From sequence record OR083247.1: a stretch of DNA of 64,000 nucleotides. One strand, 5' to 3'. The notes under the pieces were generated by a model. The model saw only the letters and a list, made by a program, of their open reading frames with translations. It was not told the DNA's origin and did no database searches. Position 1 is the first letter of the stretch. Each line of letters opens with the position of its first letter. This DNA is from Escherichia phage Bf23. Below are positions 1,326 through 64,000 of this stretch, one piece after another. The translations under genes and the position numbers were made by a program.

Positions 1326-1338
1326 AGAGGAGAAAGAT

Positions 1339-1620: not shown

Positions 1621-1629
1621 GGAACAAGA

Positions 1630-3514: not shown

Positions 3515-3516
3515 AT

Positions 3517-3945
3517 ATGTTCAATAATGTATTCTCTAAAGAAGCTAACCCAATTTTGGTTAATTTTTGGCGTACTCTTCCAGCCAACCTGTACAATGAG
3601 GCTATTAATGCTCTGAAAATATGGTGTGAGAATAATGAAATCTCCTTTGCTTTTAAGGGTGAGATTGAAGAAGCTCCCTGTATTGGTTTAATTGTGCAGG
3701 TAGAGGATGGTTTGGAAGAGATTGTCGGCTGGAAAGAGTTGGATGAAATGGGGTTGGTTTTTGCATTAAACTATAAGCTATTTATGCCCAATAAACACCG
3801 TATTGTTGTTAACTATAAAACCAGTGAATCTCCGGGCTTTCAAGTTAATGAACATTACGGTTGGTCTTACTCACCGGAAGAAGTAAATGATGGTATCCAA
3901 AAACTTCGTCGTTTTGGTTATCAAATTCCGGGTTTAACCGCCTAA
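3517..3945 (+). CDS. Hypothetical protein, tandem paralogue A (142 aa)
   Basis: Shares CIG..(E)L(D)..MGL(V/I)(F/V)ALN(Y/F)(K/S)LF(M/H)P and a C-terminal ..(I/Y)(Q/V)(I)PGL block with the next ORF. Confidence 0.55.
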   Translation: MFNNVFSKEANPILVNFWRTLPANLYNEAINALKIWCENNEISFAFKGEIEEAPCIGLIVQVEDGLEEIVGWKELDEMGLVFALNYKLFMPNKHRIVVNYKTSESPGFQVNEHYGWSYSPEEVNDGIQKLRRFGYQIPGLTA

Positions 3946-3954
3946 GGGGGCACA

Positions 3955-4347
3955 ATGGAACAAGTATATTGGCGTCAGATTGATCCTAGTTTGGTGAAGC
4001 GTGCGGAGAAGCTGCTACAACGTTGGTTGGGGGTAAGACAAGCCTCCTTCACTTTTCCGGAGCAGCAAATAGACGATCCCTGTATTGGTGTTTTCCTATC
4101 AGGCTACGCTAGGGAATGGGAATTGGATTGGAATGAGTTGTCTGCTATGGGTTTAATTGTTGCACTAAATTTCTCTTTGTTCCATCCACGTGGTTTGGCC
4201 CTATGTCGTGTGCCTGATGACGGTTGTTCGCCCCATCTTTTACAGGTGGAAGATGATATTTGGGAGTACACTCCAGATATTCTCAAAGAAGCTAAAGAAC
4301 AGTTAAACCATGTTGGGATCTATGTTCCAGGCTTGAATGATGAATGA
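3955..4347 (+). CDS. Hypothetical protein, tandem paralogue B (130 aa)
   Basis: Paralogue of 3517-3945 by eye; RBS AAGGGGG upstream. Confidence 0.55.
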   Translation: MEQVYWRQIDPSLVKRAEKLLQRWLGVRQASFTFPEQQIDDPCIGVFLSGYAREWELDWNELSAMGLIVALNFSLFHPRGLALCRVPDDGCSPHLLQVEDDIWEYTPDILKEAKEQLNHVGIYVPGLNDE

Positions 4348-4370
4348 TTTTTATTAGCTGAACTCTGATT

Positions 4371-4396
4371 ACCGAGTCATTTTGGCTCGGTTTTCT
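4371..4396 (+). terminator. Rho-independent terminator
   Basis: Stem ACCGAGTC / GGCTCGGT (one G-U pair), loop ATTTT, followed by TTTTCTCTGT. Confidence 0.55.
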
Positions 4397-4438
4397 CTGT
4401 GCTTAAAGACACTGATAGCACCTTTGGGAAAAATTTAC

Positions 4439-4480
4439 TTGCATGATGCCCAAAATCTTGATATAATATTTATATTGAAT
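4439..4480 (+). promoter_or_regulatory. sigma70 early promoter with extended -10, followed by an atypically long (about 490 nt) untranslated leader
   Basis: TTGCAT (4439-4444), 17-bp spacer, TGaTATAAT (-10 at 4462-4467), family leader TATTGAATTGAGAGA. Confidence 0.6.
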
Positions 4481-4964
4481 TGAGAGACATTAGTAAAAAT
4501 TGATTTTGCTAATTTTTCTTGTTTACAATCCGCGATACGGAACAGTTAGGCTGCCCCATTAAGGGTTGTTTTAACTATTACTAGTGTTTATATTGCATTA
4601 GTTAATCTTCAATTAAGTGATCTGTGTACCCTGAATTCGGAAAGGTAAATCCAAACCGTGCATATTTAGCTCGTTATATAGGCAGAGTTTTATATGGGGG
4701 TGCGAACGAAAAGAGCAGCGAATGGCGGCACGTACAGTAGTCACCTACCAATAGGATAGTGAGGACAAATAGAATCGGCTTAGCGGCCAATGACCTAGGT
4801 TCTATTCTGTATATGAGCGAAGAGAGCACAGCACTGAGATATGATAACTTATTCATATTGTTTGATGATAATTGATGTTTACGTAAATAGTAGTAATAGT
4901 TGTTCTATTCTTTCTGAATAGTCCTAAAGAAAAGATTTCGATTAACCAACATAGGAGTATTGTT

Positions 4965-7754: not shown

Positions 7755-7971
7755 AAAATGGGAAACAAGGAAGTTTCCAGTAAAGGAACGTAAAGTTCCT
7801 GTTTATGATACTTCGGAAAAGCTATGTAGGGTGGTACCACATAGATTAGCTGGTATCCCTAACATATCCGAGTGGTTACTTAAACAACGGAGGACTAACG
7901 TATCTCTTCGCATAGGGTTTGAGTTAGATAAAGTATATGCTGAACTTTCTTCTTTGCTCAAAGAATCATAA
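7729..7971 (+). CDS. Hypothetical protein (80 aa)
   Basis: ORF overlapping the 3' end of the upstream gene; no motif. Confidence 0.35.
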   Translation: MLEMTVKNKKWETRKFPVKERKVPVYDTSEKLCRVVPHRLAGIPNISEWLLKQRRTNVSLRIGFELDKVYAELSSLLKES

Positions 7972-7977
7972 AAAATT

Positions 7978-8030
7978 TATTTGCTTTCAGGAAAATTTTT
8001 CTGTATAATAGATTTATAAATTTGAGAGAG
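7978..8030 (+). promoter_or_regulatory. Strong sigma70 early promoter, near-identical to the classical T5 PN25 promoter as I recall it
   Basis: TTGCTT (7981-7986), 17-bp spacer, TATAAT (8004-8009), leader ATAAATTTGAGAGAGGAG; surrounding sequence TCATAAAAAATTTATTTGCTTTCAGGAAAATTTTTCTGTATAATAGATT. Confidence 0.75.
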
Positions 8031-8040
8031 GAGTTTAAAT

Positions 8041-8745
8041 ATGGCTGGTTCTCGCAGAAAGAAACATATCCATGAAATCCCGGATGAAGTCTTTAAAAAA
8101 GTTATAGAGCATCTGGAGAACGGTGGTACTAAGAAAGCAGCATGTGAAATGCTCGGGGTATCATCCAACCCAACTATGGAAAGGATGATAGAAGAATGGC
8201 AAGATCGCCAAATTCAAGTTGCCGAGATGAAGAAAAAGAAACGTGGTACACTCATTGAAGGTATTGAGTTGGCCAACGTTATTGAACAGTATCTATCTGG
8301 CGATTCTTTTGAAGAGATTGCCGATCGTAATTACCGCTCTGTAGCAATGGTTAAATCTGTTCTGGAACGATATGGTGCTCTACTTCGTTTGAACGATATT
8401 GTAGACCCATTGAATCCTCCAATTATCCCTGACGATGCTGTAGCAGAAGAATTTGAAGTTGGAGAACTAGTTTGGGTTCCTGGATACCAGTGTATCGGTG
8501 AAATCAAAAAAGCAATGGATAATCCTGTTGGTTGTTATCGAGTCTGGTTACTATCGGAAGGCAAACAACAGAACGTTCATTATATGAATTATGAGCTGGC
8601 TTCTGTTAAACATCTGGAAAAGTTAGGGGTTGACGTAAAATCTCTGGGGTACAAGTGGACTCGTGAAGAAGTTATTACGTTGATTAACGAAGCTGTTAAG
8701 GCTGCCCTGAAACTTGATAAAGAAAAAGGAAAACGCCGTGAGTAG
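8041..8745 (+). CDS. Putative DNA-binding protein with N-terminal HTH (234 aa)
   Basis: N-terminus ..GGTKKAACEMLGVSSNPTMERM.. looks like a helix-turn-helix; first gene after the PN25-like promoter. Confidence 0.5.
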   Translation: MAGSRRKKHIHEIPDEVFKKVIEHLENGGTKKAACEMLGVSSNPTMERMIEEWQDRQIQVAEMKKKKRGTLIEGIELANVIEQYLSGDSFEEIADRNYRSVAMVKSVLERYGALLRLNDIVDPLNPPIIPDDAVAEEFEVGELVWVPGYQCIGEIKKAMDNPVGCYRVWLLSEGKQQNVHYMNYELASVKHLEKLGVDVKSLGYKWTREEVITLINEAVKAALKLDKEKGKRRE

Positions 8746-8989
8746 ACTAACCGATTTACTTAAAGATGGGGAAGTAAAAACACTATATCGTAGAAGCTGG
8801 GATAACGATAATAACGGCTTAGTGTTATTAACTTTAGATGCTGACTCAGATGTAGCTACTCAGCATACCTGGGTAGCGGGTAACTATCCCTATAGCGAGA
8901 TTGTTCCATTAACAGTATGCGAAGCTATTGCGGACGATTGGGAGGTTGCCAGCATTGATGATATGCTCGCTGTTGGCCTGGTGGAGTAA
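8714..8989 (+). CDS. Hypothetical protein (91 aa; alternative GTG start near 8741)
   Basis: ORF overlapping the end of the upstream gene. Confidence 0.4.
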   Translation: MIKKKENAVSRLTDLLKDGEVKTLYRRSWDNDNNGLVLLTLDADSDVATQHTWVAGNYPYSEIVPLTVCEAIADDWEVASIDDMLAVGLVE

Positions 8990-9004
8990 CTACTTAAAAA
9001 TTTC

Positions 9005-9050
9005 AGTTGCTTAATCCTACAATTCTTGATATAATATTCTCATAGTTTGA
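9005..9050 (+). promoter_or_regulatory. sigma70 early promoter
   Basis: TTGCTT (9007-9012), 17-bp spacer, TATAAT (9030-9035). Confidence 0.6.
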
Positions 9051-9092
9051 AAGAACTATTCTGTTTAATTCTTAATTAAGGAAATATAAAAT

Positions 9093-9503
9093 ATGACTAC
9101 TCCAACTCAGTGGACTGATGAACTGTTCGAAAAAATGTCTTCCGAATACGTTGCTCGTATGGAGCAATTCCCAGAGGATGAACGTCCGGGTGTTAGCATG
9201 GAAATTGTTAGCGAAATTGCCCAGGAAAATGGTGTAACTCCGAACGGTTTTCGTATGAAGCTGACTAAAGCAGGTTTGTATATCAAGAAAGCTGCTGGCT
9301 CTGCTTCTAAATCTAGCGCATCTACTGGAGAAAAAGCTTCCGGTGGTTCTCGTACCTCCAAAGCTCAAGCCCATGCCGACCTTCGTTCAGCTTTCTCTGA
9401 TGCTGGCTTAGCACCAGATTTTCTGGATGATGCAATTATCGACAAACTGACCGGTAAAGCGGCTGCTCATCTGGCAGAAGCAATCCGAGCTATCACTAAG
9501 TAA
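9093..9503 (+). CDS. Hypothetical protein (136 aa), Ala/Ser-rich middle
   Basis: ORF with RBS AAGGAAAT; host-like codon usage (GCT, CGT, CTG, GGT). Confidence 0.5.
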   Translation: MTTPTQWTDELFEKMSSEYVARMEQFPEDERPGVSMEIVSEIAQENGVTPNGFRMKLTKAGLYIKKAAGSASKSSASTGEKASGGSRTSKAQAHADLRSAFSDAGLAPDFLDDAIIDKLTGKAAAHLAEAIRAITK

Positions 9504-9540
9504 TATTTAGATAAATCCACCAACAAAAGGAACTATAGCT

Positions 9541-9837
9541 ATGACTAAAGCTGAAATTATTGCACAGTGCGAAAAATTTGGTGAGTTTTATCTTCATTAC
9601 GAGAAACTTCGTCAGAAAGGAACCACGTACCTTCAGGGTACAATGGAATTTGATCCGGCCCAAGATAAATATCTGGCTGAGCGTATTAAACGTGAACGTA
9701 TTCGTAAAGCGAAAGATGATGAAATCCTTGTCTTCTCTCGTACTAATGATAGCTTCCGTTTTATTCCTGTCGAGAAAGTTCGTCGTGTGACTAGCCTCCA
9801 ATCAGAGTTAGATCGTGCTTCTCCAGTAGGCCGATAA
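9541..9837 (+). CDS. Hypothetical protein (98 aa)
   Basis: ORF with RBS AAAGGAAC; terminator immediately downstream. Confidence 0.5.
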   Translation: MTKAEIIAQCEKFGEFYLHYEKLRQKGTTYLQGTMEFDPAQDKYLAERIKRERIRKAKDDEILVFSRTNDSFRFIPVEKVRRVTSLQSELDRASPVGR

Positions 9838-9847
9838 GAAAACAATT

Positions 9848-9869
9848 AGCCCCTATATGGGGCTTTTTG
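9848..9869 (+). terminator. Rho-independent terminator
   Basis: AGCCCC-TATAT-GGGGCT followed by TTTTT. Confidence 0.7.
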
Positions 9870-9887
9870 TGTATTTGGGATATGTAA

Positions 9888-10196
9888 ATGAGCGAACAGG
9901 TAAATCAAAACTATGAAGGACACGTTGATGACCAGTCCATCATACTTTGGGAGAAGGAGGGGGAACAAGTAAGATTAACAGTATCTGAATTTCGTGGGAA
10001 TCTATACATGGGTATTCGTTACTGGCTTCTTGATATTAATGATGAATGGTTTCCAACGAAATCTGGCTTCTCTTTTCCTTACACCCTAGAAACAACATCA
10101 CAGCTTTTCTATGCGTTTACACAGATTCTTAGCGAATCTGAGGTTTTACATGAAGTACAGAAACGAGCTGAAGAACTCAAAGCCAAGAATGCCTAG
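9888..10196 (+). CDS. PC4/Sub1-like ssDNA-binding protein
   Basis: VRLTVSEFRGNLYMGIRYW and PTKSGFSFP resemble the PC4 C-terminal domain (..VSVRDFKGK.LIDIREYW..P.RKGISL). A PC4-like protein is known from T5-like phages. Confidence 0.55.
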   Translation: MSEQVNQNYEGHVDDQSIILWEKEGEQVRLTVSEFRGNLYMGIRYWLLDINDEWFPTKSGFSFPYTLETTSQLFYAFTQILSESEVLHEVQKRAEELKAKNA

Positions 10197-10210
10197 TTCT
10201 TGGCTTTTTC
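10182..10210 (+). terminator. Rho-independent terminator overlapping the stop of the PC4-like gene
   Basis: GCCAAGAA-TGCCTAG-TTCTTGGC followed by TTTTTCTTT. Confidence 0.65.
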
Positions 10211-10220
10211 TTTATAAATG

Positions 10221-10275
10221 TATTTGCTTTCAACTCAGTTTTGTTATATAATATTTATATAAATTAATGAGAGAT
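10221..10275 (+). promoter_or_regulatory. sigma70 early promoter
   Basis: TTGCTT (10224-10229), 17-bp spacer, TATAAT (10247-10252), leader ATAAATTAATGAGAGA. Confidence 0.65.
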
Positions 10276-10283
10276 ATAAATAA

Positions 10284-11255
10284 ATGACCAATGTAAAAGA
10301 ATTTATTAAACGCTGTCAAGAAGCATATTATCAAGGTATGTCTTTAATCTCTGATGAGGAGTATGATTGCCTAGTAAAACGCTTCCCGTTAGAGGAAGAG
10401 ATCGGGCCTAAGGGTGATATTCCACATCTGTATCGTATGTATTCTTTACAGAAAGTTTACTATAACCGTGGAGATAAACCACCATTCAATCCTTTAGGTC
10501 AGGTGGAAACCGATAAGTTAGATGGTTGTGCAATTTCTCTGCTATATATTAATGGCGAATTTGTTCAAGCACTAACTCGTGGTAATGGTATTCTGGGGAA
10601 TGATGTCACAAGCAACATAAGATTGCTGAACATCCCTAAAAAGATTTCCCAAAAAGTACCTACTCAAATCACTGGTGAAGTTCTAATTACAAAAGAAGTA
10701 GAAAATAAACGTAACTTTGCCTCTGGTGCTATTAACCTCAAAGATAGCGATGATTTCGTACAACGTATCGGGGAAGGTGGTTTAATCTTTGTTGCTTATG
10801 GTATCCAATGTTCTGCTGAATCTGTGGGTATTACAGAAGCATATTTAAAAGATATGCTTTGGCTAGAGAATGAGAACTTCTTAACAGTTGTTAATGTGCG
10901 TTCCTTCTTTAAATGGATTCCGACGGACGGTAAAGTTGTTCGTATTAATGACAACAACAAATTCTTCCGTGAAGGCTGGACTAATAAATTCCCTCGTGGA
11001 GCATTCGCCATTAAAGAGGATGAAGAAGGCGAGATTACAACTCTTACTAAGGTTGAATGGCAGGTAGGGGCTTCTGGTAAAGTAACTCCAGTTGGTTATT
11101 TCGAACCGGTAATTATTGATGATGCTACAATTGTTAAAGCGACTCTTAATAACGTTGATTATATTAACTCTCTCGATCTAGAGATCGGTTGCCAGATTCG
11201 AGTGATTCGTGCTGGTGGTGTAATCCCGTGCATAGTAGAGCGAGTATACGATTAA
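10284..11255 (+). CDS. ligA: NAD-dependent DNA ligase, adenylation (N-terminal) subunit
   Basis: Adenylation motif I KLDG in ETDKLDGCAISLLY; size and position fit a split ligase. Confidence 0.75.
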   Translation: MTNVKEFIKRCQEAYYQGMSLISDEEYDCLVKRFPLEEEIGPKGDIPHLYRMYSLQKVYYNRGDKPPFNPLGQVETDKLDGCAISLLYINGEFVQALTRGNGILGNDVTSNIRLLNIPKKISQKVPTQITGEVLITKEVENKRNFASGAINLKDSDDFVQRIGEGGLIFVAYGIQCSAESVGITEAYLKDMLWLENENFLTVVNVRSFFKWIPTDGKVVRINDNNKFFREGWTNKFPRGAFAIKEDEEGEITTLTKVEWQVGASGKVTPVGYFEPVIIDDATIVKATLNNVDYINSLDLEIGCQIRVIRAGGVIPCIVERVYD

Positions 11256-54215: not shown

Positions 54216-54379
54216 TTAACTTTTTGCCAAATTTCATAAGATTACACATGAGGATGTGCTCACTGCCTCCGGCGAAAATACTTAGTCTGCTAACCGCCAC
54301 ACCCGTTATTATTACCATGCTAACTGTTTCACCCTGCAACCATTTTAATTGCAAGGTGAAACAATTTCAACCTTAATTA

Positions 54380-55114
54380 TTATGCGACTTTTAGTTTTTC
54401 AATATATTGTTGCGGGCTGCAACTATATTCTGCGCGTTCTTCCTCGGTCATACTTTCCCAACATAATTGCAAGCGATCGGCTAGGAACTGATAATCATTA
54501 TCATCGTCGAGCGATTCATCGATAAAGGTTTCACCTATCAATGTCACGCCGATTGATAGAATATCATTAATAGCTTGTGCGTCCAGCGTTTTAAACCCGT
54601 ATGATGCCGCCGCCGATAGCACGCCCTTATGATCATCAATCATCGTGAAATCAGCGTTTGGATATAGCTGTTTAAATAACTCAAAGTAATGGCTTTTATA
54701 TATAGCATCTTTACTGTGGTATATTTCGCTAACTTTATCAGCCTCAAAATATTTGTGTAGTGTGTCGCGGGAAAATACACGGATATTACTATCCCCACGC
54801 CCTCGCAGTCCTTGTTTGCGTAGGTAATAATAATCTGACTTACTCATCAGTCGAGCGGTACAAATAATGTTTAACGTGTTAACGTCATTCATACATTGGC
54901 GCATATATGTAACAAGCGGCAATAGTGTGTCCTGCATTATTAAATCATGTTTACATGCTTCATTCTTATATTTATTTAAATCTAAATTACCATCGTTATC
55001 AAAGCAAGGCGCTACGCGATGGAATGAGTTAACGATAGTGCCGTCCAGATCCCAGATCATGACGCGGGAAATATGCGGGAAATTACGGGTAATATTCGTT
55101 TTAACTTGATTCAT
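54380..55114 (-). CDS. dmp: 5'-deoxyribonucleotidase, HAD family, T5 Dmp-like (244 aa)
   Basis: HAD motif I in VMIWDLDGTIVNS; size and position among pre-early-type genes. Confidence 0.65.
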   Translation of the reverse strand: MNQVKTNITRNFPHISRVMIWDLDGTIVNSFHRVAPCFDNDGNLDLNKYKNEACKHDLIMQDTLLPLVTYMRQCMNDVNTLNIICTARLMSKSDYYYLRKQGLRGRGDSNIRVFSRDTLHKYFEADKVSEIYHSKDAIYKSHYFELFKQLYPNADFTMIDDHKGVLSAAASYGFKTLDAQAINDILSIGVTLIGETFIDESLDDDNDYQFLADRLQLCWESMTEEERAEYSCSPQQYIEKLKVA

Positions 55115-55188
55115 TTTGTTACGTTCTCCATTAAAGGGATTAAATTAAATTAATCCAGCCCACTGGATGGGCTGGGCTATTCCAGCTA

Positions 55189-55584
55189 TTAAAGACCATA
55201 AGCCAACGCATCAGCGATGACGGTAATATCTTCACCCGATACATCGGAACGGATGCCCGCGCATGTAAATACTTTTGCGCTCATTAGCTGATCATCAAGG
55301 CAAGCGGGACAAGGGGCAACTACTGCGAAAGCTAAACCTGATTTTACGGCATCGATGATAATCGTTTCTTGTTTCACCGTGTCAATATAAACGCCTTTCG
55401 CCTTGATGCGGCTGGATAACTTGCCCGTGGTATAGGCGAAAGTAGTGATCTGTAGCGCCTCGTTAAACTCGATTAAATCATCGACAACGTGACCGGCCTC
55501 AACGTGATACCGCTCACCATTAGAATAAACTAGGACGATAGAAGACTGAGCGCGATCGAATGGAATACGGTTAGAAATAGCCAT
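55189..55584 (-). CDS. Hypothetical protein (131 aa)
   Basis: ORF in the - strand pre-early chain; GC-richer codons. Confidence 0.5.
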   Translation of the reverse strand: MAISNRIPFDRAQSSIVLVYSNGERYHVEAGHVVDDLIEFNEALQITTFAYTTGKLSSRIKAKGVYIDTVKQETIIIDAVKSGLAFAVVAPCPACLDDQLMSAKVFTCAGIRSDVSGEDITVIADALAYGL

Positions 55585-55653
55585 GTTTATAACTCCAATT
55601 AATTTAATAAACTTTTATAGCGGCGGTATATTTCAACCGCCAACCTGATTTAT

Positions 55654-57318
55654 TTACGCAAAAAATTTACCATTCTTAAAGTCAATCAAGGTGCGCTGAC
55701 CGTTTGCATAGGTAATAACATGCGTTTGTGTCCAGCTTGACGCGCCAACGTTGTAACCCATGTCCAGACTACCAGACACGCCAGCGGTGTATACGCCGCC
55801 GTAAATACTGGCGGTATGAGTGTGCCCCGTGTTCAGTTTACCCAATTTCTTAAATTGCTTCGGATTGCCACGGCTCCCGTTAATGCCATTGTGACCGTGT
55901 ACGCCGCATTCAATGCCTGCAATCTTGAAAGATTGGTCAGTCGTTAGGAAAATGGCGTTAAACTCGCAACCTGCAACCTTGCGCAACGCATAATCTAGCA
56001 CGTTGAAAGTATCGTCTTTTTCTGCAATAGCTCCATAAATCGCGGCATTAAGGCGGTGATATAGTTCGGCGTTGGCTGGATCGTCTTTGATGTTAGCATT
56101 ACGATCATCCAGCCAACGGGATAGCGCCAGATCGTGGTTTGATTCTACGATGATCGTTTGAGAAAAATCGCGCTCCATTGATTCCAACACGCGACCGGTA
56201 TCGATAAGATCATCCAGAACTTTATCACGTCCGGCGGCGTATTGTTTTGCTAGGAATACACCCGAAGCGCGATTGTGATGGTTGCGTGATGTAAAATCAT
56301 GCACGTCATGGACAAATTGATATTTTGGTTTAAGAATATCAAGCAAGCTATTTTCGCCAGCCCATGACGCAGCGGCGCAATCATCATCCAGTTTTTCAGC
56401 GTGGACGTCGCCATATTGTAAACCTAAAACGTGCCCCGTTGTTTCATAGCATCCGGCGGGAGTAGCGCAAACATTCAGATCGTAAAAAACGCCGCTTTCG
56501 TCCATAGTTTCAAGCTGGCGCACAAAAAACTCACCGTCCTCGTCGAACTCGACAACAAGCGCACCGAAATTATGCAACGCTTCCGCTTTCTGTCCTGCTT
56601 TCTGCTGGATGTAGTTTTTTAGCGTTGCCGTGCCGGTTGAATACATACGGCGCACTACTTCACCTTTTAAAGCTGGGACGCTCTCGGCGGTGATTTTAGC
56701 CGCTCCAATTGCCAGACCTTCAAGGTTGAGCGCGGTTGCAGTTTCAGCAAATCCAGAAAGCGGATAATCTGCGGTAGGTAAAACGTTAATTTCAGCCATG
56801 AAAGCAAAGCGGCGATTATTCAAAAACACGTTTTTATTGCAGATATATTTGTCAAATGCGGAATCATATTTGATTCCTTCGGCGCCCTCGCCATTTTGAA
56901 AACCGTTTTTGTTATAAATAAACTTGCTAACCAGCAAATCAGCGCCGATATATTTAGCAAATTGCTCCAGTGAGGCTAAAAAGTTTTTATGCGGGAAAGT
57001 ATTATTCTGAATCGACGTAATAATAAAGCGTTTACCCTGCTTTACTTCCCAGCTTTCAACCGTGCTAGAAACAATCCCCGCCGCTTCTGGGCGCTCATCG
57101 TTTTTAATGGCTTTTGCTACTTTCGCCGCTTTCGGTTTAGCTGGTTTATTTGCTTCCAACCAATCACAAATCGCGGTCGAGTGTTTTGTAGTATCATAGA
57201 CCGCCTTTGATATATCGTCGCAGACTTCCAGTTTAGTGGCGCGCAGACGTTTACCATAGAAATTAAAGTCAGCGGCCATTTTCAGGATAACGGTTTGTTT
57301 TTCTGCGGAAATAATCAT
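55654..57318 (-). CDS. A1: Pre-early protein A1-like (554 aa), putative metallophosphoesterase-type nuclease
   Basis: Size close to that recalled for T5 A1; metallophosphatase-like His clusters (..GVHGHNGINGSRG.., ..GHTHTASIYGG..); neighbours dmp and A2-like genes. Confidence 0.65.
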   Translation of the reverse strand: MIISAEKQTVILKMAADFNFYGKRLRATKLEVCDDISKAVYDTTKHSTAICDWLEANKPAKPKAAKVAKAIKNDERPEAAGIVSSTVESWEVKQGKRFIITSIQNNTFPHKNFLASLEQFAKYIGADLLVSKFIYNKNGFQNGEGAEGIKYDSAFDKYICNKNVFLNNRRFAFMAEINVLPTADYPLSGFAETATALNLEGLAIGAAKITAESVPALKGEVVRRMYSTGTATLKNYIQQKAGQKAEALHNFGALVVEFDEDGEFFVRQLETMDESGVFYDLNVCATPAGCYETTGHVLGLQYGDVHAEKLDDDCAAASWAGENSLLDILKPKYQFVHDVHDFTSRNHHNRASGVFLAKQYAAGRDKVLDDLIDTGRVLESMERDFSQTIIVESNHDLALSRWLDDRNANIKDDPANAELYHRLNAAIYGAIAEKDDTFNVLDYALRKVAGCEFNAIFLTTDQSFKIAGIECGVHGHNGINGSRGNPKQFKKLGKLNTGHTHTASIYGGVYTAGVSGSLDMGYNVGASSWTQTHVITYANGQRTLIDFKNGKFFA

Positions 57319-57414
57319 AGTAATAAAGCTCCATTAAAGGGATTAAAAACGTTTGTTATTGGCAAATATTGCCAAATATAACGCCTTGAATAATAGGCGT
57401 TATAATTTGCAACA

Positions 57415-57612
57415 TTAATTTAAAGGCATAAGGCTAGAACTAACACCACAAGCAACGGCGGCAATAAAACAAATCAGACCTAAACGCTTTGCCAATTTAG
57501 ACTTACGCTTAAAATAATATGAATCTAAATCATTTTGAAAGTATGCAAATAATAATGAGGCCGCCATAATAAATAAGCCTAGAATTAACGATTCAGTGGG
57601 GTAAAAGATCAT
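57415..57612 (-). CDS. Small membrane protein (65 aa; start moved to ATG 57612 with RBS GGAG)
   Basis: Two hydrophobic helices; the upstream in-frame extension to 57660 would read through a perfect 20-bp palindrome. Confidence 0.4.
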   Translation of the reverse strand: MIFYPTESLILGLFIMAASLLFAYFQNDLDSYYFKRKSKLAKRLGLICFIAAVACGVSSSLMPLN

Positions 57613-57669
57613 TTTAATAACTCCAGTCAAAGGGAAATTATAGTGGGGAATATTCCCCACTAATTAAAT

Positions 57670-58086
57670 TTATTCACCTGCGGCTTGTTTTACTTCATCG
57701 GCAACGCCTAACAGTTGCGCCACGGCGTCCAGCGTTTCTAACTTTGCGCTTTCCAGACTTGCCAAATCGTCGGCGTCTTTGATAATGCCGGAATCAATAG
57801 CATGTTTAGCGATAACGCGTACATAATGAGCTTTGCGAATTGAACTACCGCCGCCAACTTTGCGCGGCTTATCGCTTTTCTGATACGCTTTCGCGCTGGT
57901 CAATTTTGAGCGAACAGACACGGGAGAAGCCGCGCCAACTGTTTTAGCAATCTCTTTCAGGCCGTCGCTGTTGGCGAACTCCAAGCCGTTTTCGTTGATC
58001 AACTGTTGATACATGGTAACAGCCTGTTGGGTGTTTTCTTCATTCCAAGCAAATTTTGCGGATTTTTCGGTTTTAACGTTAGCCAT
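57670..58086 (-). CDS. A2: Pre-early protein A2-like, putative DNA-binding protein (138 aa)
   Basis: Size and position relative to the A1-like gene; Lys/Ala-rich. Confidence 0.55.
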   Translation of the reverse strand: MANVKTEKSAKFAWNEENTQQAVTMYQQLINENGLEFANSDGLKEIAKTVGAASPVSVRSKLTSAKAYQKSDKPRKVGGGSSIRKAHYVRVIAKHAIDSGIIKDADDLASLESAKLETLDAVAQLLGVADEVKQAAGE

Positions 58087-58184
58087 GATTATAACTCCTA
58101 TTGAATTAATTTAAGGGATAAGATTAACATAATGTTAATCGTTATATACCCCAAACTACTGGGGTATATAAAGTTAACACTAAG

Positions 58185-58436
58185 TTATAAAACAGCTTCC
58201 CATTTTTCGTTGCGTTGAACAACCTTTACAACGTCGCCGGATTTAACGCGAACGCTAAAAACGGTTTTGCCGTTGTTACTACGTTCATTTTCAGCGTATA
58301 CCGCGTCGATTGTATCAAACGGCATAAGCGCCACACCTTTAATGCGTTCGGTTTTTCCGGTTAATTCGTCCGTTTTAGTAACGAAAGGAATAAAAACGGA
58401 TTGACCAATTTTAGGCGCGGTAATAACGTTTTTCAT
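58185..58436 (-). CDS. Hypothetical protein (83 aa)
   Basis: ORF with RBS AGGAG; leader contains a 10-bp-stem hairpin. Confidence 0.45.
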   Translation of the reverse strand: MKNVITAPKIGQSVFIPFVTKTDELTGKTERIKGVALMPFDTIDAVYAENERSNNGKTVFSVRVKSGDVVKVVQRNEKWEAVL

Positions 58437-58663
58437 AGTATAAACTCCTAGTTATTTGGGGATTGTTCCGCATTACCTGCTAGAAAGTAGCAGGTAATAA
58501 GAAAAAATCCGCTCGCCAATATAATCAATTTAAAGAACTCCACTCAGGCCGCTATATCCCAGTTAGGGGGCGGGACACATTATGGTAAGTGCCGACCGTC
58601 AAATTGTATCAAGTTATCGCTCTTATCGAACTGGGTACATCTTAAAGCCTATCGGCTAGGGTG

Positions 58664-58867
58664 TCAAACAATTTTTTGCAGTTTTTTATGATTTTCTTTC
58701 AGGTCAATCATAATATTTCGCCAGATCATTTCCAGACCTTGCTGGCGGCCTTTCTTGTACTGCGTGAATCTATATCTTACGGATTGTTGAGCTACTGTCA
58801 ACAATTTTTTAGTAGTAACATCTAATTTTTTAGCTGGTTTACCAGTGATCAAAAGCGTTTGTTTCAT
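58664..58867 (-). CDS. Small basic protein (67 aa) bracketed by 24-bp inverted repeats
   Basis: Lys/Arg/Gln-rich ORF with RBS AAGGA; inverted repeats at 58633-58654 and 58904-58927. Confidence 0.4.
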   Translation of the reverse strand: MKQTLLITGKPAKKLDVTTKKLLTVAQQSVRYRFTQYKKGRQQGLEMIWRNIMIDLKENHKKLQKIV

Positions 58868-59320
58868 ATCTGCGATTCCTTATATAATTGATAAGTTTAC
58901 CGCCGATAGACTTTAAGATGTACCCAATTTTTAAAGAGCGTGGCGGTAAACTTCCCGCCGTGTAGTTCGTCATTGCCGCCCTACGAGATAAATAATAGGG
59001 GATTCCCAAAAATGGCGCAACCTTATTTTTGTAAAGAAACGTAAAGAAAGCAAATACTCGCAAGGTGTCCGGCGATTGCCCAAGTTTAAAGGAAACGGGC
59101 GCACGAATACCATAAAACCCAGCAGGTTGGCAAGTAATTTTTTCATTTATATTTGCCTTACCCTACTTGACAAAATCTAAAAAGCTCGTGGTAGCGATAA
59201 ACGAGGGTAGGCAATGCAATGGCCTGGCTAAAACTTTCATCGCGTTCTAGGGCGTTTTAGGCGCATTCTAGCCTTGTTGATAACTTATCCCCAGAAGCAA
59301 AAATGAAATTTTCCTAGTTA

Positions 59321-59351
59321 TCCACTTGACTTTTATTTTCCAGTGGATAAC
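59321..59351. promoter_or_regulatory. Inverted pair of DnaA-box-like sequences
   Basis: AGTTATCCACT..AGTGGATAACT around a 14-bp AT-rich centre. Confidence 0.5.
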
Positions 59352-59494
59352 TACTTATTTTATGAAATAAATTAATTGACTTTTATTTGTTAGTATGCAT
59401 CGGAAAGATAGCAGACTAATAATTGCTAGGATGATAATCATGCTGGTGGATTGTAACGGCTTAAACTATCAGCGGACTATTAATCACGGAAAAT

Positions 59495-59545
59495 CTCGTT
59501 AGCTAACTAACTATTTCATGATGTATAATATACATATAAATTAAT
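59495..59545 (+). promoter_or_regulatory. Early-family sigma70 promoter facing the + strand cassette
   Basis: TATAAT (59524-59529) with the family leader ATATAAATTAATGAGAAATAA; -35 is weak (AGCTAA). Confidence 0.5.
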
Positions 59546-59633
59546 GAGAAATAATAATTATAATAAATAATAACTACAGTAAATAATAACTATAAGAAAC
59601 TATCGGCCTAAGTGAGAACCACTATCATTTAAG

Positions 59634-59741
59634 TTATCCACAAGTTTATTAACAGCACAAAATGATTTGACACGATAGGCGGCGATATAAAGACTTATCC
59701 ACAGACTTATCCACAGGTTATCCTACTGTATAAATATACAG
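59634..59741. promoter_or_regulatory. Cluster of three consensus DnaA boxes plus a LexA-box-like palindrome
   Basis: TTATCCACA at 59634-59642, 59695-59703 and 59707-59715; CTGTATAAATATACAG (CTGT-N8-ACAG) at 59726-59741. Confidence 0.6.
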
Positions 59742-60007
59742 GGTAAATGGGTAGTGTTAACAACTGCAATCAATTTTAAGCGGCCTAAAACGCTTTCTAA
59801 CGAGCTAAATGCGGTGGGGTAATATTAAAGTAAAGCCTTCACCCGTCGCCCTGGTGGCTTCGCCGTGTTTTGCTCTTTACTATACCGCTGCGCGGTTAAC
59901 ATAAAAATAAGCGTTAGGCAAGGAAAATAAAAAGGTAAAATAATATTTGCCCCTAGAAAGAAAATACCTTTATCATTCACTCACCGATTAACGAGGGAGG
60001 CCAACAA

Positions 60008-61000
60008 ATGAGGCTATATAAACCAGATAACGCAACCGTCTTAAAAGGTGCGCTGCGTAACCTGCTGGACGGTAGCAGAACAACCAGCATTAAACACTTT
60101 GTTAACAAGGCCGAAGATATTCACCAAAACTTTTTTGATGATTTCGATGCCTATGATATGAGTAGTTTTTTACAACTGTATAAGCAAGGGGCAACGCTTG
60201 TTTTGTATAATCGAGATAATCACCTGCTTACTAGTAGGGGGCCGGATACCGATTTCATAATTGTAAAAGGTAGCACAGTAAAAGCCTATGACACTGGAGC
60301 GGGCTTAGAAGTTTTTTCAATAGAAAACTATGAAGCCAACCCCAATGATCTTTATGACGTTGAAAACTTTCTTGATTCATTTTGGCGTTATTTATCCGTT
60401 GGCTGGAATCGGTCAATTGGTGACGGGTATCGTCTGGCGGCTGTAATGACCTTTGATGATGATGGCAATTTTTTGCTACCGTCGGAAGTATACCCATACG
60501 TATATGATGGGGATATAGAAAGCGCGGGCTTTTCTTTCTGGAAAGAGGGGAATCAGCCTATTGACAACACGGAAAAACATGCTGTAAATTCTAACACTCA
60601 AAGCGTTAATACTCAAATCACTGAAAACAAAGGAAAAAACACCATGACCAAGATCGCTAATATTGTTGCCGCTAATAAATCCGCTGTTGTAAACGCTGCA
60701 AAACTGGAAGCGGGTAAAATTGCACTGACTCAAATTACGAAAGTAGCGGCTAAAAAAGCGCCGTTCATGATCAAAGGCTATATTGATACGCCGATTGGTC
60801 GAGTAGTGATTGCCAACCTGCTTAGCGTAGCGGTTGACCAGTACGCCCCGAGTAACCAGAAAGCGAAAGCGGTAGCAGGGGCAGCTATGGAAGCGGCAAT
60901 GCTAGAAATGGTGCAAAGTTTTAACATCGCTGAGATGATCGATGAAATGGTAAAAGGTATCGATATTTCTACTTTCACCGTTAACAACGAAAGCGAGTAA
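60008..61000 (+). CDS. Hypothetical protein (330 aa)
   Basis: ORF with RBS GAGGGAGG; Ala/Lys-rich C-terminal half; no motif. Confidence 0.5.
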   Translation: MRLYKPDNATVLKGALRNLLDGSRTTSIKHFVNKAEDIHQNFFDDFDAYDMSSFLQLYKQGATLVLYNRDNHLLTSRGPDTDFIIVKGSTVKAYDTGAGLEVFSIENYEANPNDLYDVENFLDSFWRYLSVGWNRSIGDGYRLAAVMTFDDDGNFLLPSEVYPYVYDGDIESAGFSFWKEGNQPIDNTEKHAVNSNTQSVNTQITENKGKNTMTKIANIVAANKSAVVNAAKLEAGKIALTQITKVAAKKAPFMIKGYIDTPIGRVVIANLLSVAVDQYAPSNQKAKAVAGAAMEAAMLEMVQSFNIAEMIDEMVKGIDISTFTVNNESE

Positions 61001-61065
61001 TAATATTAAGCGGGGATTGTTACCCCGCTTTAATGTTCCCTTGTTAATTAATAGGAGGCTAATTA

Positions 61066-61560
61066 ATGGCTGAAGAAAAATATGGCTTCTCACTGGGAGA
61101 AGTGAGCACGGCAAAACATGATATGATCATTTTGGTCGATTGCCATACTGGCTATTGCGGAGAAGGTTGGACGGAGGAACATTTTGTTCCAGCTGGCTGT
61201 AATCTGGACGCTTTCGCTCAGGAAATGGCTATTGATAATGCTTCTCGTTTTGGTAGCGATGGTTACGAAGACGAAGAAACTGGCGAATGGTATGAAAATG
61301 AAAACGTATATGCAAGCCTTTATCATTATCAGCTAAGTAAATCCGGCACATATGTAAACGGCGGCGATCCTATTAATTCCGTCATGAAATTAATTATTAA
61401 ATATGGCGGAGTAGAGATAGTTGGTAACAAAGCGGTAATATACGCAAACCGATTAAAACAGCTTGTTTATATTCCTGATAGTACCCGATGGGATGAATAT
61501 GCTGTTTTGCATGACGAATTGAAACGATGTTTCAATATTGAAACCTTACAAGTAGTCTAA
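61066..61560 (+). CDS. Hypothetical acidic protein (164 aa)
   Basis: ORF with RBS AGGAGG; no motif. Confidence 0.5.
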   Translation: MAEEKYGFSLGEVSTAKHDMIILVDCHTGYCGEGWTEEHFVPAGCNLDAFAQEMAIDNASRFGSDGYEDEETGEWYENENVYASLYHYQLSKSGTYVNGGDPINSVMKLIIKYGGVEIVGNKAVIYANRLKQLVYIPDSTRWDEYAVLHDELKRCFNIETLQVV

Positions 61561-61664
61561 TGTAAAGTTTTGTAAAGGTCGCCTTTTATGGTGGCCTTTT
61601 TTGTTATAATGCTTTTACACCAAAACGGTGGATTGAAAATTTCCCAAAAATTTGGAGGCTTAAA

Positions 61665-61895
61665 ATGGTTGCATATTCTTCTTCTGACGCTCTTTTCACT
61701 GGAAAAGGCTGGGTATCAAATCGCTGGATCATTCATGAAATGGTGCAAGAATACGGCATTGCTAAAACTTACACTACCATCCAGGCGCTTTATGATAATG
61801 ATCAAATTGATCAGCAAACGGCTGGTTTTTTGCTGGATACCCTGAAAGCGGAGCACTGTACTAAAAAACAAGCCGCCAAAATTGTTTTAATGTAA
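61665..61895 (+). CDS. Hypothetical protein (76 aa)
   Basis: ORF with RBS GGAGG upstream. Confidence 0.4.
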   Translation: MVAYSSSDALFTGKGWVSNRWIIHEMVQEYGIAKTYTTIQALYDNDQIDQQTAGFLLDTLKAEHCTKKQAAKIVLM

Positions 61896-61941
61896 TTAAT
61901 AACGGGGCGTTACTTTCGCCCCGCTAACTAGGAGAATGAAA

Positions 61942-62091
61942 ATGGTTATTTTTCGAGCTATTCTAGCAGGTATCTTGGGCGCTATTTTATCCCTTTTTGC
62001 TATAGCTTTTGGCGTTCACGCGGTTACTATTGGTGCTGGCATTGCTGTATTTTCTTATCTGCTGGGCTGCATGACTAGTAAAGGAGAATAA
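61942..62091 (+). CDS. Small hydrophobic membrane peptide (49 aa; not in the ORF track)
   Basis: RBS AGGAGAA then ATG; MVIFRAILAGILGAILSLFAIAFGVHAVTIGAGIAVFSYLLGCM.. Confidence 0.35.
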   Translation: MVIFRAILAGILGAILSLFAIAFGVHAVTIGAGIAVFSYLLGCMTSKGE

Positions 62092-62093
62092 AA

Positions 62094-62306
62094 ATGATCC
62101 GCAACGTTTCTCTTGCACGTTCGAAAGGCTTTAAGCTGGTGGATGTTAACACGTTCGAGCGGGAAGATTGTAAAATCGAATATGTAGCACGTAATAAAAA
62201 TGCCTTTCGTGTTACCGAGAAAAAATTCGATAAGCGGGGCAACGTGATAGCTGAAACGGTTAAACATTTTGCCACCTTTTACGCTGCATTTCGTGGGGTA
62301 CTATGA
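62094..62306 (+). CDS. Hypothetical basic protein (70 aa)
   Basis: ORF with RBS AGGAGAA upstream. Confidence 0.4.
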   Translation: MIRNVSLARSKGFKLVDVNTFEREDCKIEYVARNKNAFRVTEKKFDKRGNVIAETVKHFATFYAAFRGVL

Positions 62307-62427
62307 AAAGCGTTATTGTTGTTATCCTTGCAATGGTTGGAGGTTTTACCGCCACCTTATTTAAGAATGACCCCCTTTTACTGGGGGTTTTTATGCTTTT
62401 ATCTGGATACCTGATTGGGAGGTTATA
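62303..62427 (+). CDS. Small membrane peptide (41 aa; not in the ORF track)
   Basis: ATGA overlap with the upstream ORF; MKSVIVVILAMVGGFTATLF..LLGVFMLLSGYLIG. Confidence 0.3.
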
Positions 62428-62429
62428 AA

Positions 62430-62774
62430 ATGGTTATTTATGAAGGCAACCGCTTTGTTACTAATTGCCGTCCGGCATTACTAGCAAACTACTTAAATCA
62501 GCTTTCCCCAGCTTATAAGGGCGTCATTAATATTTATGAAGGCAAGGCGCATTATAAAATTAATGCGGTCGTTGCCCGTGAACTAGCGTTTCAATTTTTG
62601 ACCTTTGCATCTTGTGATATTCAGGTCATGGGTGAGGCGTTAATTGCAGAAAATGAAGATGATTTTATTAATATTTTTCGCAAAGTATGCACCGAGCGCC
62701 TGATAATGAAAGGCGCATATATTCAATCCACTGCGGATAGTATTGAAACAGCGTTTCGAAAGGTGGCACAATGA
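62430..62774 (+). CDS. Hypothetical protein (114 aa; start at ATG 62430 after RBS GGGAGG)
   Basis: ORF 62415-62774 in the track, trimmed to the ATG with a proper RBS. Confidence 0.45.
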   Translation: MVIYEGNRFVTNCRPALLANYLNQLSPAYKGVINIYEGKAHYKINAVVARELAFQFLTFASCDIQVMGEALIAENEDDFINIFRKVCTERLIMKGAYIQSTADSIETAFRKVAQ

Positions 62775-62874
62775 AATTATATATTTTCGCGGGTAATGTT
62801 GAGGCTGCAAATGATTCCGCTGGTGGCGATAACGTTCGCCACTATTGGCAAAAATATATTTACTAGGCGTTATT

Positions 62875-63069
62875 ATGAGCAATAAAATTATTATAACTAA
62901 AACTACCACAATGGTTGACGTTTTTTATGTGCCCGATACGCTGGAAAACCGGCGAGCGGTCGAGCGGGGCGAATATGATAGCGTTATTTATGATGCCGAT
63001 GGTTACTACCGGCATTTGGTCGATTCCTATGGGGAGGAGGAGAAGATCACGCATCAATTACCGGACTGA
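62875..63069 (+). CDS. Hypothetical protein (64 aa from ATG 62875)
   Basis: ORF 62845-63069 in the track begins at a TTG; the internal ATG is preferred. Confidence 0.4.
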   Translation: MSNKIIITKTTTMVDVFYVPDTLENRRAVERGEYDSVIYDADGYYRHLVDSYGEEEKITHQLPD

Positions 63070-63210
63070 TAACAAGCGGGGAGCAGATCCCCGTTTTTCA
63101 CGCCTCCAGTTAAATACCCCTTTGTTTTAGTATCCCCACCAAAATTAAACGCGTTAGAATGCGATTCAGGACGTTTTAGGCGTATATTAGAATTATTCAC
63201 TACGTAGGAA

Positions 63211-63320
63211 TACTGTATAAATATACAGTAGAATAACTTGGGGATAAGTCTGTGGATAACGCCTCAAAATGGCTGGGATTCTGTCAAGTCAAATCGTGCT
63301 GTTAATAAGTCTGTGGATAA
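63211..63320. promoter_or_regulatory. LexA-box-like palindrome plus two consensus DnaA boxes, in inverted orientation relative to 59634-59741
   Basis: TACTGTATAAATATACAGTA at 63211-63230; TGTGGATAA (reverse complement of TTATCCACA) at 63251-63259 and 63312-63320. Confidence 0.6.
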
Positions 63321-63351
63321 CTTAAATAACAGTGTTTCTCACTTCCGTTTT

Positions 63352-63507
63352 TAAATGCGAATCATTATCATTCGCATTTCACTATCTAACCGATAATCAT
63401 TCCACTTTTTAAATGAGATTGATTCTCATTTCACTTTCTAAATGCGAATTATTATCATTCTCATTCCGCTTTTTAAATGAGAATGATTCTTATTATCATT
63501 CTCATTT
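63352..63507. repeat. Cluster of four related palindromic repeats (AAATG(C/A)GAAT..ATTC(G/T)CATTT units)
   Basis: Four units, each an inverted repeat with 10-13-bp arms around a short AT spacer, at about 63352-63380, 63411-63432, 63440-63468 and 63474-63507. Confidence 0.7.
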
Positions 63508-63531
63508 AGCGCAGGGCAATTGCCCTGCGCT
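63508..63531. repeat. Perfect 24-bp GC-rich palindrome containing two GCGC tetramers
   Basis: AGCGCAGGGCAATTGCCCTGCGCT, followed by TTTTG on the + strand. Confidence 0.7.
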
Positions 63532-63533
63532 TT

Positions 63534-63756
63534 TGTGCAAATCCGACATTTGCTCCAAGGGTTACGTGCTGGCGTATATGTGCAAATCCGACAATTTTTG
63601 GTAGTGTGCAAATCCGACCCGAAAAATTTTTATAGTGTGCGAATCCGACAATGAATTTTCCTAAAAACTCCAGCAATCACGAACTGCGTTCGAATCCTGT
63701 GGGATATGTGCAAATCCGACACGGTTTTTCTAGGGTTAAGATGTGCGAATCCGACA
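63534..63756 (+). repeat. Iteron-like array: six direct copies of TGTGC(A/G)AATCCGAC(A) with irregular AT-rich spacers
   Basis: Copies at 63534, 63579, 63605, 63636, 63707 and 63742, plus one degenerate copy near 63688; spacers 11-56 bp, usually ending in a T-run. Confidence 0.75.
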
Positions 63757-64000
63757 AGATTTTTGTGACTTCGATGGGAGGGTGTGTGATTGTATAGGTT
63801 TGAGGGGAAGATGAGAGAGCGAGAAAAATTTGAGGGGATAGAAGGATGTGGGCGCAGGATTGGTGCGGAGCACCTGATTTGCGGGGATTTTGGGGAAGAG
63901 TTGAGATAATTTGGGAAGATTTGAGATAGGTGCAGAAAAAGTAAAATTTTATTAGCAAAATGGGGCAAAATAGCTTGACAAGTGAAAATTCTTGTGGATC

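Follow-up and report, generated by a model that had tools for sequence, protein, structure and literature searches.

A purine-rich, non-coding tract beside the predicted right genome terminus of the T5-like phage BF23

We analysed a 64,000-nucleotide stretch of DNA from Escherichia phage Bf23 (BF23; record OR083247.1), referred to here as the window, with attention to the purine-rich DNA that fills its last 230 bp. An initial annotation had called this DNA strongly purine-skewed and unusual against the rest of the window. Both statements are borne out by comparison with ~6,400 sliding 231-nt segments, taken at a step of 10 across the 64-kb window. Positions 63770–64000 contain 31% A, 36% G, 26% T and 6.9% C on the + strand. 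The purine share of 67.1% is the maximum of the set (mean 0.503, standard deviation (SD) 0.044, no segment being equal or higher), the GC skew of +0.68 falls in the top 0.02% (mean 0.02, SD 0.137) and the C content in the bottom 0.03%. The remaining top-ranked segments all overlap 63770–64000. The bias is thus present where it was first placed, although the limits needed correction: alignment and conservation put the start of the biased tract at 63757, directly after the last copy of a GTGCRAATCCGACA repeat, and its end at ~63965, with the last ~60 nt (63941–64000) forming a distinct near-invariant block of ordinary composition.

All 448 phage records matched by the last 2 kb of the window are T5-like (Demerecviridae of Salmonella, Escherichia and related hosts), with identities that reach ~92% across the whole 2 kb. 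Across the last 20 kb the best identity is ~91%, and phage VAH1 is closest to the last 481 nt (96.9%). Identity as a plasmid or an iteron-type origin was considered and rejected: the last 2 kb have no plasmid homology, and the iteron-like layout is the one already known from the repeat region of T5. Annotated in the T5 record (AY543070) are a left terminal repeat at 1..10219 with its right copy at 111532..121750, an 'injection stop signal' at 9140..10149 and a major minus-strand nick at 9748/9749; the next gene comes not before 10936. Window positions 63066–64000 align to T5 9264–10219 at 88% identity and positions 63740–64000 do so at 96% (261 nt); in this alignment base 64000 corresponds to T5 10219, the final base of the terminal repeat. 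The boundary, which reads GTGGCTC/TAAAAA (slash at the junction), is also the annotated repeat end in Sw2 (1..9816, determined by PhageTerm), Shivani (1..11123) and phiR2-01 (1..9901), and the records of HdH2 and NBSal005 end at a boundary matching base 64000. Homology to both T5 repeats delimits a right terminal repeat (RTR) of ~9,744 bp at 54257..64000, matching the 9,743 bp obtained with PhageTerm for BF23. Because base 64000 aligns to the repeat ends of T5, Sw2, Shivani and phiR2-01, and on the further evidence of the two record ends, we place the right physical genome terminus at the end of the window by homology. The suggestion that the tract relates to a genome end is therefore upheld.

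Conservation in related genomes, proposed at the outset as a check, was assessed in T5-like sequences from Tequintavirus and Epseptimavirus, 33 distinct ones in all: annotated records supplied 10, and the others were fished by pattern from a scan of viral contigs. The first alignment, of 10 phages, was independent of the fishing pattern. Length and strand bias are both kept: the tract measures 229–235 nt, with 6.8–11.3% C and a GC skew of +0.50 to +0.70. In the left-repeat copies the 231 nt directly outside the boundary have a GC skew of ~−0.1, so that the bias stops at the boundary. Near-invariant sequence is found at 63757–63810, 63881–63900 and 63941–64000. As a separate observation, an HNH homing endonuclease gene is inserted in Shivani (locus L007, 1244–1783), where it splits the homologue of window 63520–64000, and the same is seen in FGS017 and S.Kent 1-2-1; the region therefore tolerates an insertion of ~0.5 kb.

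These relatives also settle the coding status of the tract, which had been described as crossed only by antisense open reading frames (ORFs). The three antisense ORFs (63630–63968, 63677–63958 and 63736–63873) are intact in only 1–2 of the 33 relatives, the tract differs in length among relatives by frame-breaking steps (−1, −2, +1 and +4 nt), and searches of Pfam and PHROGs with the two longest antisense ORFs returned no match. A protein-coding gene is ruled out by the lack of ORF conservation together with these null searches. A 50-aa ORF spanning the boundary, annotated as a gene in Sw2 and GreteKellenberger, was likewise discarded, having no ATG in T5 and DT571/2. Nor does a longer contig turn the region into coding sequence, since the left-repeat copies run on as ~700 nt more of non-coding DNA. 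The purine-rich terminal stretch is, then, confirmed as real and non-coding.

More remote Demerecviridae were found via the A1 protein. Klebsiella phage Sugarland (MG459987; A1 ~73% identical) has the T5 element order and a tract with skew up to +0.71, directly followed by the boundary motif TTGACA...TTCCTGTGGCTC/TAAAAA and, beyond it, by more repeats. Proteus phage PM135 (A1 ~42%), the record of which carries no annotation of termini, has the same order; its long tract is built of GGGGATTTT-type units and reaches a skew of +0.72. The record of Vibrio phage Javier (A1 ~31%) begins and ends with an exact 7,651-bp repeat, which fixes the terminus. On the way to the right boundary from within the repeat, one meets successively CTGTATAAATATACAG boxes, TGTGGATAA boxes, tandem repeats, CCTGCGC and a GTGCAAATCCGA-type array; the last 100 nt before the boundary have 6% C and a skew of +0.68, and the G-run units extend ~30 nt past the terminus. 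In all three phages a G-rich, C-poor tract comes after a block made up of DnaA boxes, CCTGCGC and a repeat array. Although the tracts of Sugarland, Javier and PM135 cannot be aligned with that of T5, they keep the bias on the same strand and at the same place. The opposite end of the repeat behaves differently. The first 90 nt at the left terminus (54257–54346) have 33% C and 13% G (skew −0.43 on the + strand) and mirror the right end in T5-like phages, which would give a telomere-like symmetry with both 3′ strands G-rich; this idea was dropped because the left-end skew is not conserved (−0.18 in Javier and +0.07 in Sugarland).

Within the tract, the direct repeats and GGGG runs that had been noticed at first sight could be located. 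TTTGAGGGGA occurs as exact copies at 63799 and 63829 and as the variant TTTGCGGGGA at 63878, and TTGGGGAAGAGTTGAGATA (63890–63908) is 89% alike to TTTGGGAAGATTTGAGATA (63910–63928). Pairs of 10-mers with at most one mismatch number 17 inside the tract, compared with 3.95 ± 3.3 in composition-matched shuffles (2 of 300 shuffles reach this value), so that its internal repeat content exceeds that of the shuffles; across the whole 64-kb window, TTTGAGGGGA with at most one mismatch is at chance level (5 observed, 3.6 expected). Six of the seven TTTG starts share one phase modulo 10, and the period-10 power of 4.1 exceeds that of every background segment.

The anatomy of the tract can be followed from left to right. 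A conserved 5′ block, AAGATTTTTGTGACTTCGATGGGAGGGTGTGTGATTGTATAGGTTTGAGGGGAAG (63757–63810, + strand), includes the first TTTGAGGGGA and has mean majority-base frequencies of 0.89–0.99 in the 33 sequences; 83% of the columns at 63770–63810 are invariant in the 10-phage alignment. It is followed by a variable, C-depleted middle (63811–63861, + strand; conservation 0.63–0.88) with TGAGAGAGCGAG at 63812–63823, the second TTTGAGGGGA at 63829 and GCGCAGG at 63852, of which 63831–63850 is the most variable part of the whole tract. TGAGAGAGCGAG is a purine-substituted relic of the GTGCGAATCCGAC repeat. Epseptimaviruses carry an intact TGCGAATCCGAC repeat at the same position, and part of the tract is therefore a repeat copy stripped of its C's. 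Next comes a small hairpin or palindrome with a 5-bp stem, GGTGC-GGA-GCACC (63862–63874); nearly all 33 sequences preserve the stem, the loop varies freely, and two sequences have the double compensatory change GGCGT/ACGCC. The T-run/G-run units follow at 63878–63928 (+ strand), first TTTGCGGGGATTTTGGGGAAGAG and then TTGGGGAAGAGTTGAGATA and TTTGGGAAGATTTGAGATA in tandem, with conservation of 0.93–0.94 at 63881–63900. The near-invariant terminal block (63941–64000), ending ...AAATTTTATTAGCAAAATGGGGCAAAATAGCTTGACAAGTGAAAATTCTTGTGGATC, contains TTGACA at 63975–63980 and the last base of the repeat, and conservation is 0.90–0.99 to either side of the boundary. It extends ~50 nt beyond in left-repeat copies, through /TAAAAACTCAGGCAATCATGGGCCTTCGGCCCGAAATAATGCTG, and in the 10-phage alignment the first 60 columns past the boundary include 47 invariant ones.

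Several other identities were tried on these parts and failed. A consensus scan of the tract found no promoter and no intrinsic terminator. A rightward promoter across the boundary, pairing TTGACA at 63975 with the −10 candidate TCTAAA, fails the consensus scan, position 6 not being T. The heptamer GCGCAGG, which follows the major T5 nick on its 3′ side, is present at 63852 but on the opposite strand, and its count in the window is near a rough expectation, so a nick site within the tract was rejected. At E up to 1, the T5 and Sw2 homologues of the region gave no Rfam match; one weak, unrelated match lay elsewhere.

The degenerate TGAGAGAGCGAG raises the question of whether the tract has a specific function at all: it could be a decayed extension of the GTGCRAATCCGACA array with a local mutational bias, retained between functional elements. 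The relic of a repeat that is intact in Epseptimaviruses would be expected under this account, as would a middle that is the least conserved part of the tract. A substitution spectrum examined for selection against C has a mild T-to-G excess and a T-to-C deficit, only mildly unlike the flanks, which also agrees with it. Decay does not sit well, however, with a constant length of 229–235 nt in 33 sequences, with several blocks conserved at 0.9–0.99 and a covarying hairpin, or with equal bias in unrelated sequence in four lineages; the bias is, moreover, one of G enrichment and not the T enrichment expected from cytosine deamination. We regard the absence of a specific function as decidedly unlikely.

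The G runs (GGGG at 63804, 63834, 63883, 63892 and 63962; GGG at 63776, 63780, 63850 and 63913) had suggested G-quadruplex-prone DNA, and a G-quadruplex in DNA or RNA on the + strand could act as a structural signal. The number of G3+ runs in the tract, nine, is in keeping with this proposal, Sugarland has the canonical motif GGGGTTAATTGGGGCAATTCGGGGATGATGGGGGCAGGGGG, and herpesvirus packaging signals have been reported to be able to form G-quadruplexes. Regular-expression searches nevertheless find no motif of four G3+ runs in the window, even with loops of up to 12 nt, and the canonical motif is present in one of the 33 relatives (two when loops of up to 12 nt are allowed) and absent from Javier. 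The G4Hunter maximum of 1.44 in the tract is equalled elsewhere in the window. The suggestion thus fails for the window and for 32 of the 33 relatives, and with Sugarland as the exception we reject a G-quadruplex element in the T5-like phages; as an explanation of the tract we consider it extremely improbable.

The elements that lead into the tract come in the order LexA-type box, two TGTGGATAA boxes, AT-rich hairpin repeats, nick palindrome and six GTGCRAATCCGACA repeats. The near-perfect LexA-type box TACTGTATAAATATACAGTA (63211–63230) is a 20-mer that is invariant in 29 loci. This LexA (SOS) box stands directly left of the DnaA-type boxes, and close variants were seen in Sugarland, Javier (two copies) and PM135. 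The two TGTGGATAA DnaA-type boxes, described in Davison's preprint, are at 63251–63259 and 63312–63320, and AT-rich hairpin repeats occupy 63322–63510. The palindrome AGCGCAGGGCAATTGCCCTGCGCT (63508–63531, − strand) is, by the T5 annotation, the homologue of the major minus-strand nick site (9748/9749; the '7.9%' nick, or '99.5%' in the right repeat). The GTGCRAATCCGACA repeats, known in the T5 literature as 'DRD', number six here and start at 63535, 63580, 63606, 63637, 63708 and 63743 (63535–63756, + strand), and the window holds 8 matches where 0.31 would be expected. Left-repeat copies have three further GTGCRAATCCGACA repeats outside the boundary, and the cut therefore falls within the repeat array. 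A 21-nt direct repeat, CTAAAAACTCCAGCAATCACG (63661–63681; form CTAAAAACTC(C)AG(G)CAATCA(C/T)G), recurs in left-repeat copies from the first base outside the boundary. The cut is thus the exact start of one 21-nt repeat copy, and a shorter third copy lies at +68. We presume that this repeat may correspond to the 'DRA' copies of Wang et al.

Further features were noted on both sides. A hairpin lies at +19..+33 past the boundary (locus L001, T5, 3738–3752; Sugarland ~10507–10523), with the form GGGCC-TTCG-GGCCC in T5-like phages and CACGGTG-ACA-CACCGTG in Sugarland; its flanks (...TAAAAA and ATTTCAGGAG) are conserved, and in the hairpin itself structure is kept rather than sequence. Units containing CTAG (TCTAGAA, CCTAGAA and CCCTAGA) recur, by eye, many times in the unique, non-coding DNA that lies to the right of the boundary in T5 (L001 3720–4300) and in the distant Javier (L041 2200–2795), and AACCGCCCT repeats were seen by eye there in T5, Sugarland and PM135. 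Two further copies of GTGCAAATCC(T/G)A, 15 nt apart, lie at 23728–23754 within a 646-aa coiled-coil ORF (22459–24399); there they translate to ...NVQILQVQIRQL... and could be either a second binding site or a coincidence of coding. The E. coli Chi sequence GCTGGTGG occurs 7 times in the window compared with 0.77 expected, a count reached by 0 of 100 shuffles (+ strand 11211, 12536, 21744, 59442, 62135 and 62819; − strand 28919), and the three sites in the right repeat are oriented for recognition by RecBCD entering from the right genome end. Neither Chi nor a close variant was found within the tract.

By homology, this layout makes the tract the last module of what is called 'Repeat Region 3' in T5, a long untranslated stretch that bears the injection-stop-signal annotation: the genome is T5-like, it carries a long direct repeat, the elements align with T5 in the same order and the sequence ends at the boundary. 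Repeat Region 3 is said to have been described by Wang et al. in 2005. It was also described by Davison (2015/2020), and the BF23 region is directly homologous, with DnaA boxes, hairpin repeats, nick palindrome, DRD repeats and repeat end in the same order and no structural difference. The words 'purine', 'promoter', 'Vibrio', 'Klebsiella' and LexA are absent from the Davison preprint, and neither it nor the BF23 paper mentions a G-skewed tract, its composition across the family, an inward promoter, a LexA-type box or the Klebsiella, Proteus and Vibrio relatives.

Membership of this region raises the possibility of a role in two-step injection, in which the tract would bind the A1/A2 pre-early proteins or a host protein and so hold or restart DNA transfer. 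The tract does lie within the T5 'injection stop signal' feature (9140..10149) and belongs to the conserved Repeat Region 3, and the layout is kept in every sampled Demerecviridae lineage that bears A1/A2; in Davison's account, A1/A2 are proposed to act to the right of the injection stop signal (iss). The iss candidates (IRD′-spacer-IRC′ and the DRE repeats), on the other hand, are left of the shear point at ~9618, making the tract second-step DNA. Since the tract is 370–600 bp beyond this estimated point, during the pause it would be found in the tail or close to the portal and not in the cell. An injection role does not predict either strand asymmetry or abutment on the terminus. Because the tract is right of both the shear point and the proposed stop elements, we grade such a role low, as quite unlikely.

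The reading that we tentatively prefer, while according it somewhat less than an even chance, is that the tract is a cis-acting binding platform for genome cutting and packaging at the end that is packaged first. In tailed phages, packaging and injection of DNA obey a last-in-first-out rule. T5 injects its left end first, and by this rule its right end would be packaged first; if so, the terminase must assemble just inside the right repeat boundary. The near-invariant ~110 bp straddling the boundary would then be the cutting site, and the tract an adjoining platform to which the small subunit of the terminase, or else an accessory protein, would bind. The T-run/G-run units (TTTGAGGGGA and GCGGGGATTTTGGGGAAG) are co-oriented and spaced by multiples of ~10 bp, and repeat arrays flank the cut on both sides. 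Strand-specific protein binding, which the initial annotation had raised, is plausible given the conserved blocks, the single motif orientation and the ~10-bp phasing. A packaging platform would account both for a bias that ends at the terminus and for conserved, phased units.

A number of observations weigh against this proposal. The T5 record places the tract inside the 'injection stop signal', the direction of packaging is itself derived from the tailed-phage rule, functional studies of this non-coding region are lacking according to the BF23 paper, and our literature search found no paper on T5 packaging signals. Across subfamilies composition is kept and sequence is not, which suits a Rho-loading site, or another element recognised by its composition, no less well than a sequence-specific protein site. 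The terminus of Javier falls inside the G-run tract, compared with ~35 nt after the tract in T5-like phages, so that the G/T/G unit does not stand at a fixed distance from the end. The left repeat boundary shares no comparable motif with the right one: by eye, T5 gave a weak 5/9 match and Javier no match, and conservation at the left boundary is too low for the exact-pattern scan, with its 5 hits, to be informative. Two annotated repeat ends also disagree with the consensus boundary. The left repeat of saus47N (MF431733) is annotated to end at 1469, 207 nt further in and within the purine tract (...GGGTGTGTGATTG/TATGGG), which is probably a difference of annotation and not a different terminus. 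The PhageTerm repeat end of Sugarland (10138, CCTGCGC/T) is the homologue of the major T5 nick, and GTGGCTC/TAAAAA lies ~353 nt further right (~10491). The annotated Sugarland repeat is probably miscalled and too short because the nick was taken for the terminus.

Known packaging sites provide a measure for this proposal. Lambda cosB, SPP1 pacL/pacR and P1 pac consist of multiple short sites within ~50–250 bp of the cut, often phased or bent and often on the first-packaged side or on both sides of it. The BF23 arrays resemble SPP1 pacL/pacR in flanking the cut on both sides; the phage sites are defined by binding and genetics and the tract, here, by its sequence, and none of cosB, pacL/pacR and P1 pac is known for such an extreme strand composition. 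The T7 concatemer junction carries short repeat arrays by the terminal repeat and needs RNA polymerase pausing for its processing. Exact direct terminal repeats and strand-asymmetric short repeats at the boundary are shared with T7, and a link between junction transcription and processing would be; T7 differs in having a 160-bp repeat and its own RNA polymerase where T5 has a ~10-kb repeat and uses the host polymerase. Herpesvirus pac1, a T-rich element with flanking G runs near the terminus in a terminal repeat, directs a phage-type terminase to cut nearby. GCGGGGATTTTGGGGAAG (63881–63898, conserved at 0.93–0.94) and GGGAGGGTGTGTGATTG in the tract resemble it in form, without sequence homology, and T-rich cores with G runs are present, again in form only, in PM135, Javier and Sugarland. 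Cleavage at pac1 takes place at a fixed short distance, whereas the best G/T/G unit of the tract is ~105–120 nt from the end and the Javier unit lies 1–16 nt outside the boundary.

The main alternative, which we consider rather unlikely, is that the tract is read as RNA. The untranslated leftward RNA would be C-rich in the tract and could serve as a Rho-loading (rut) site, at which Rho would end transcription before it reached the nick, the repeat and the DnaA-box region and ran antisense to the pre-early genes. In a variant, the stalled or terminating complex would help to mark the boundary for processing, much as T7 RNA polymerase pausing does. In its 78 nt, the leftward RNA of 63850–63773 has 35 C, 1 G and 27 YC dimers. 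For C minus G it scores 34, compared with a window-wide mean of 0.7 (SD 6.2) and with 20 for the runner-up on either strand. The RNA is also nearly unstructured (minimum free energy −13.2 kcal/mol over 206 nt), the hairpin at 63862–63874 being the sole stable element in its fold. Overall it fits the profile of a rut site, which calls for ~80 nt or more of RNA that is C-rich, G-poor and unstructured, and is the strongest such segment on either strand. Sites such as lambda tR1 have this character in an untranslated transcript, which for BF23 is predicted. Composition without sequence conservation in four lineages is what a site read by a host factor through its composition predicts, and the tract neighbours other host-factor sites, namely the DnaA- and LexA-type boxes. 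A Rho-loading site would thus explain how composition is kept while sequence drifts.

Transcription into the tract could come from a near-consensus sigma-70 promoter (TTGACA-17/18-TGT-TATAAT/TATCAT) that faces it from 583–786 nt outside the boundary in several T5-like lineages and Sugarland. In T5 it is at L001 4352–4380 (T5 10851–10879, minus strand), with equivalents in the same place in L003, L011, L012, L013 and Sugarland; the hexamers are conserved and the spacers are unrelated between lineages. Javier has a similar site 568 nt outside its boundary. The stretch from promoter to boundary has no minus-strand ORF of more than 28 aa in T5, and no conserved ORF lies between them. As an observation in its own right, the promoter implies a predicted non-coding leftward transcript of ~600 nt that enters the repeat. 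The case for Rho is weakened by L015, one of the loci examined, which has no match to the strict promoter pattern, and by the literature, in which we found no transcript data for the region. A rut site needs ~80 nt, whereas the tract also has sequence-conserved blocks, a covarying hairpin and phased units, and Rho loading does not account for a bias that ends at the repeat boundary. In addition, no outside transcription can enter the right-repeat copy at the genome end, and a Rho element would therefore act only at the left-repeat junction or in concatemers.

The packaging and Rho-loading proposals are not exclusive, and the probabilities that we attach to them overlap. A bolder form, which we hold to be a long shot, is that a strand-specific element, defined largely by composition and kept in Demerecviridae of hosts from E. 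coli to Vibrio, couples transcription by the host polymerase from the conserved inward promoter, terminated or stalled by Rho on the C-rich RNA, to cutting by the terminase at the boundary of the 10-kb repeat, and/or that a pac1-like G/T/G signal is common in form to tailed phages and herpesviruses.

The tract is another member of a known T5 element, to which we add new descriptive points and two testable mechanisms. In published discussion of the region the focus is on the part with DnaA boxes and inverted repeats, taken as the injection stop signal. Our analysis adds that the last ~230 bp are a distinct module abutting the physical terminus, that their strand bias, unlike their sequence, is kept far outside the T5-like genera, that T5-like phages have no G-quadruplex element here, and that a conserved promoter faces the tract. 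It also indicates that PhageTerm boundaries in nicked genomes can land on a nick, as has apparently happened in Sugarland. These points bear on two long-standing questions about T5, namely how the exact terminal repeats of ~10 kb are cut and duplicated and what role is played by the large conserved untranslated region at the repeat end. Coupling of transcription to cutting, if true, would be a host-factor version of the paused-polymerase junction of T7 and would provide a first handle on the cutting and duplication of T5-type repeats.

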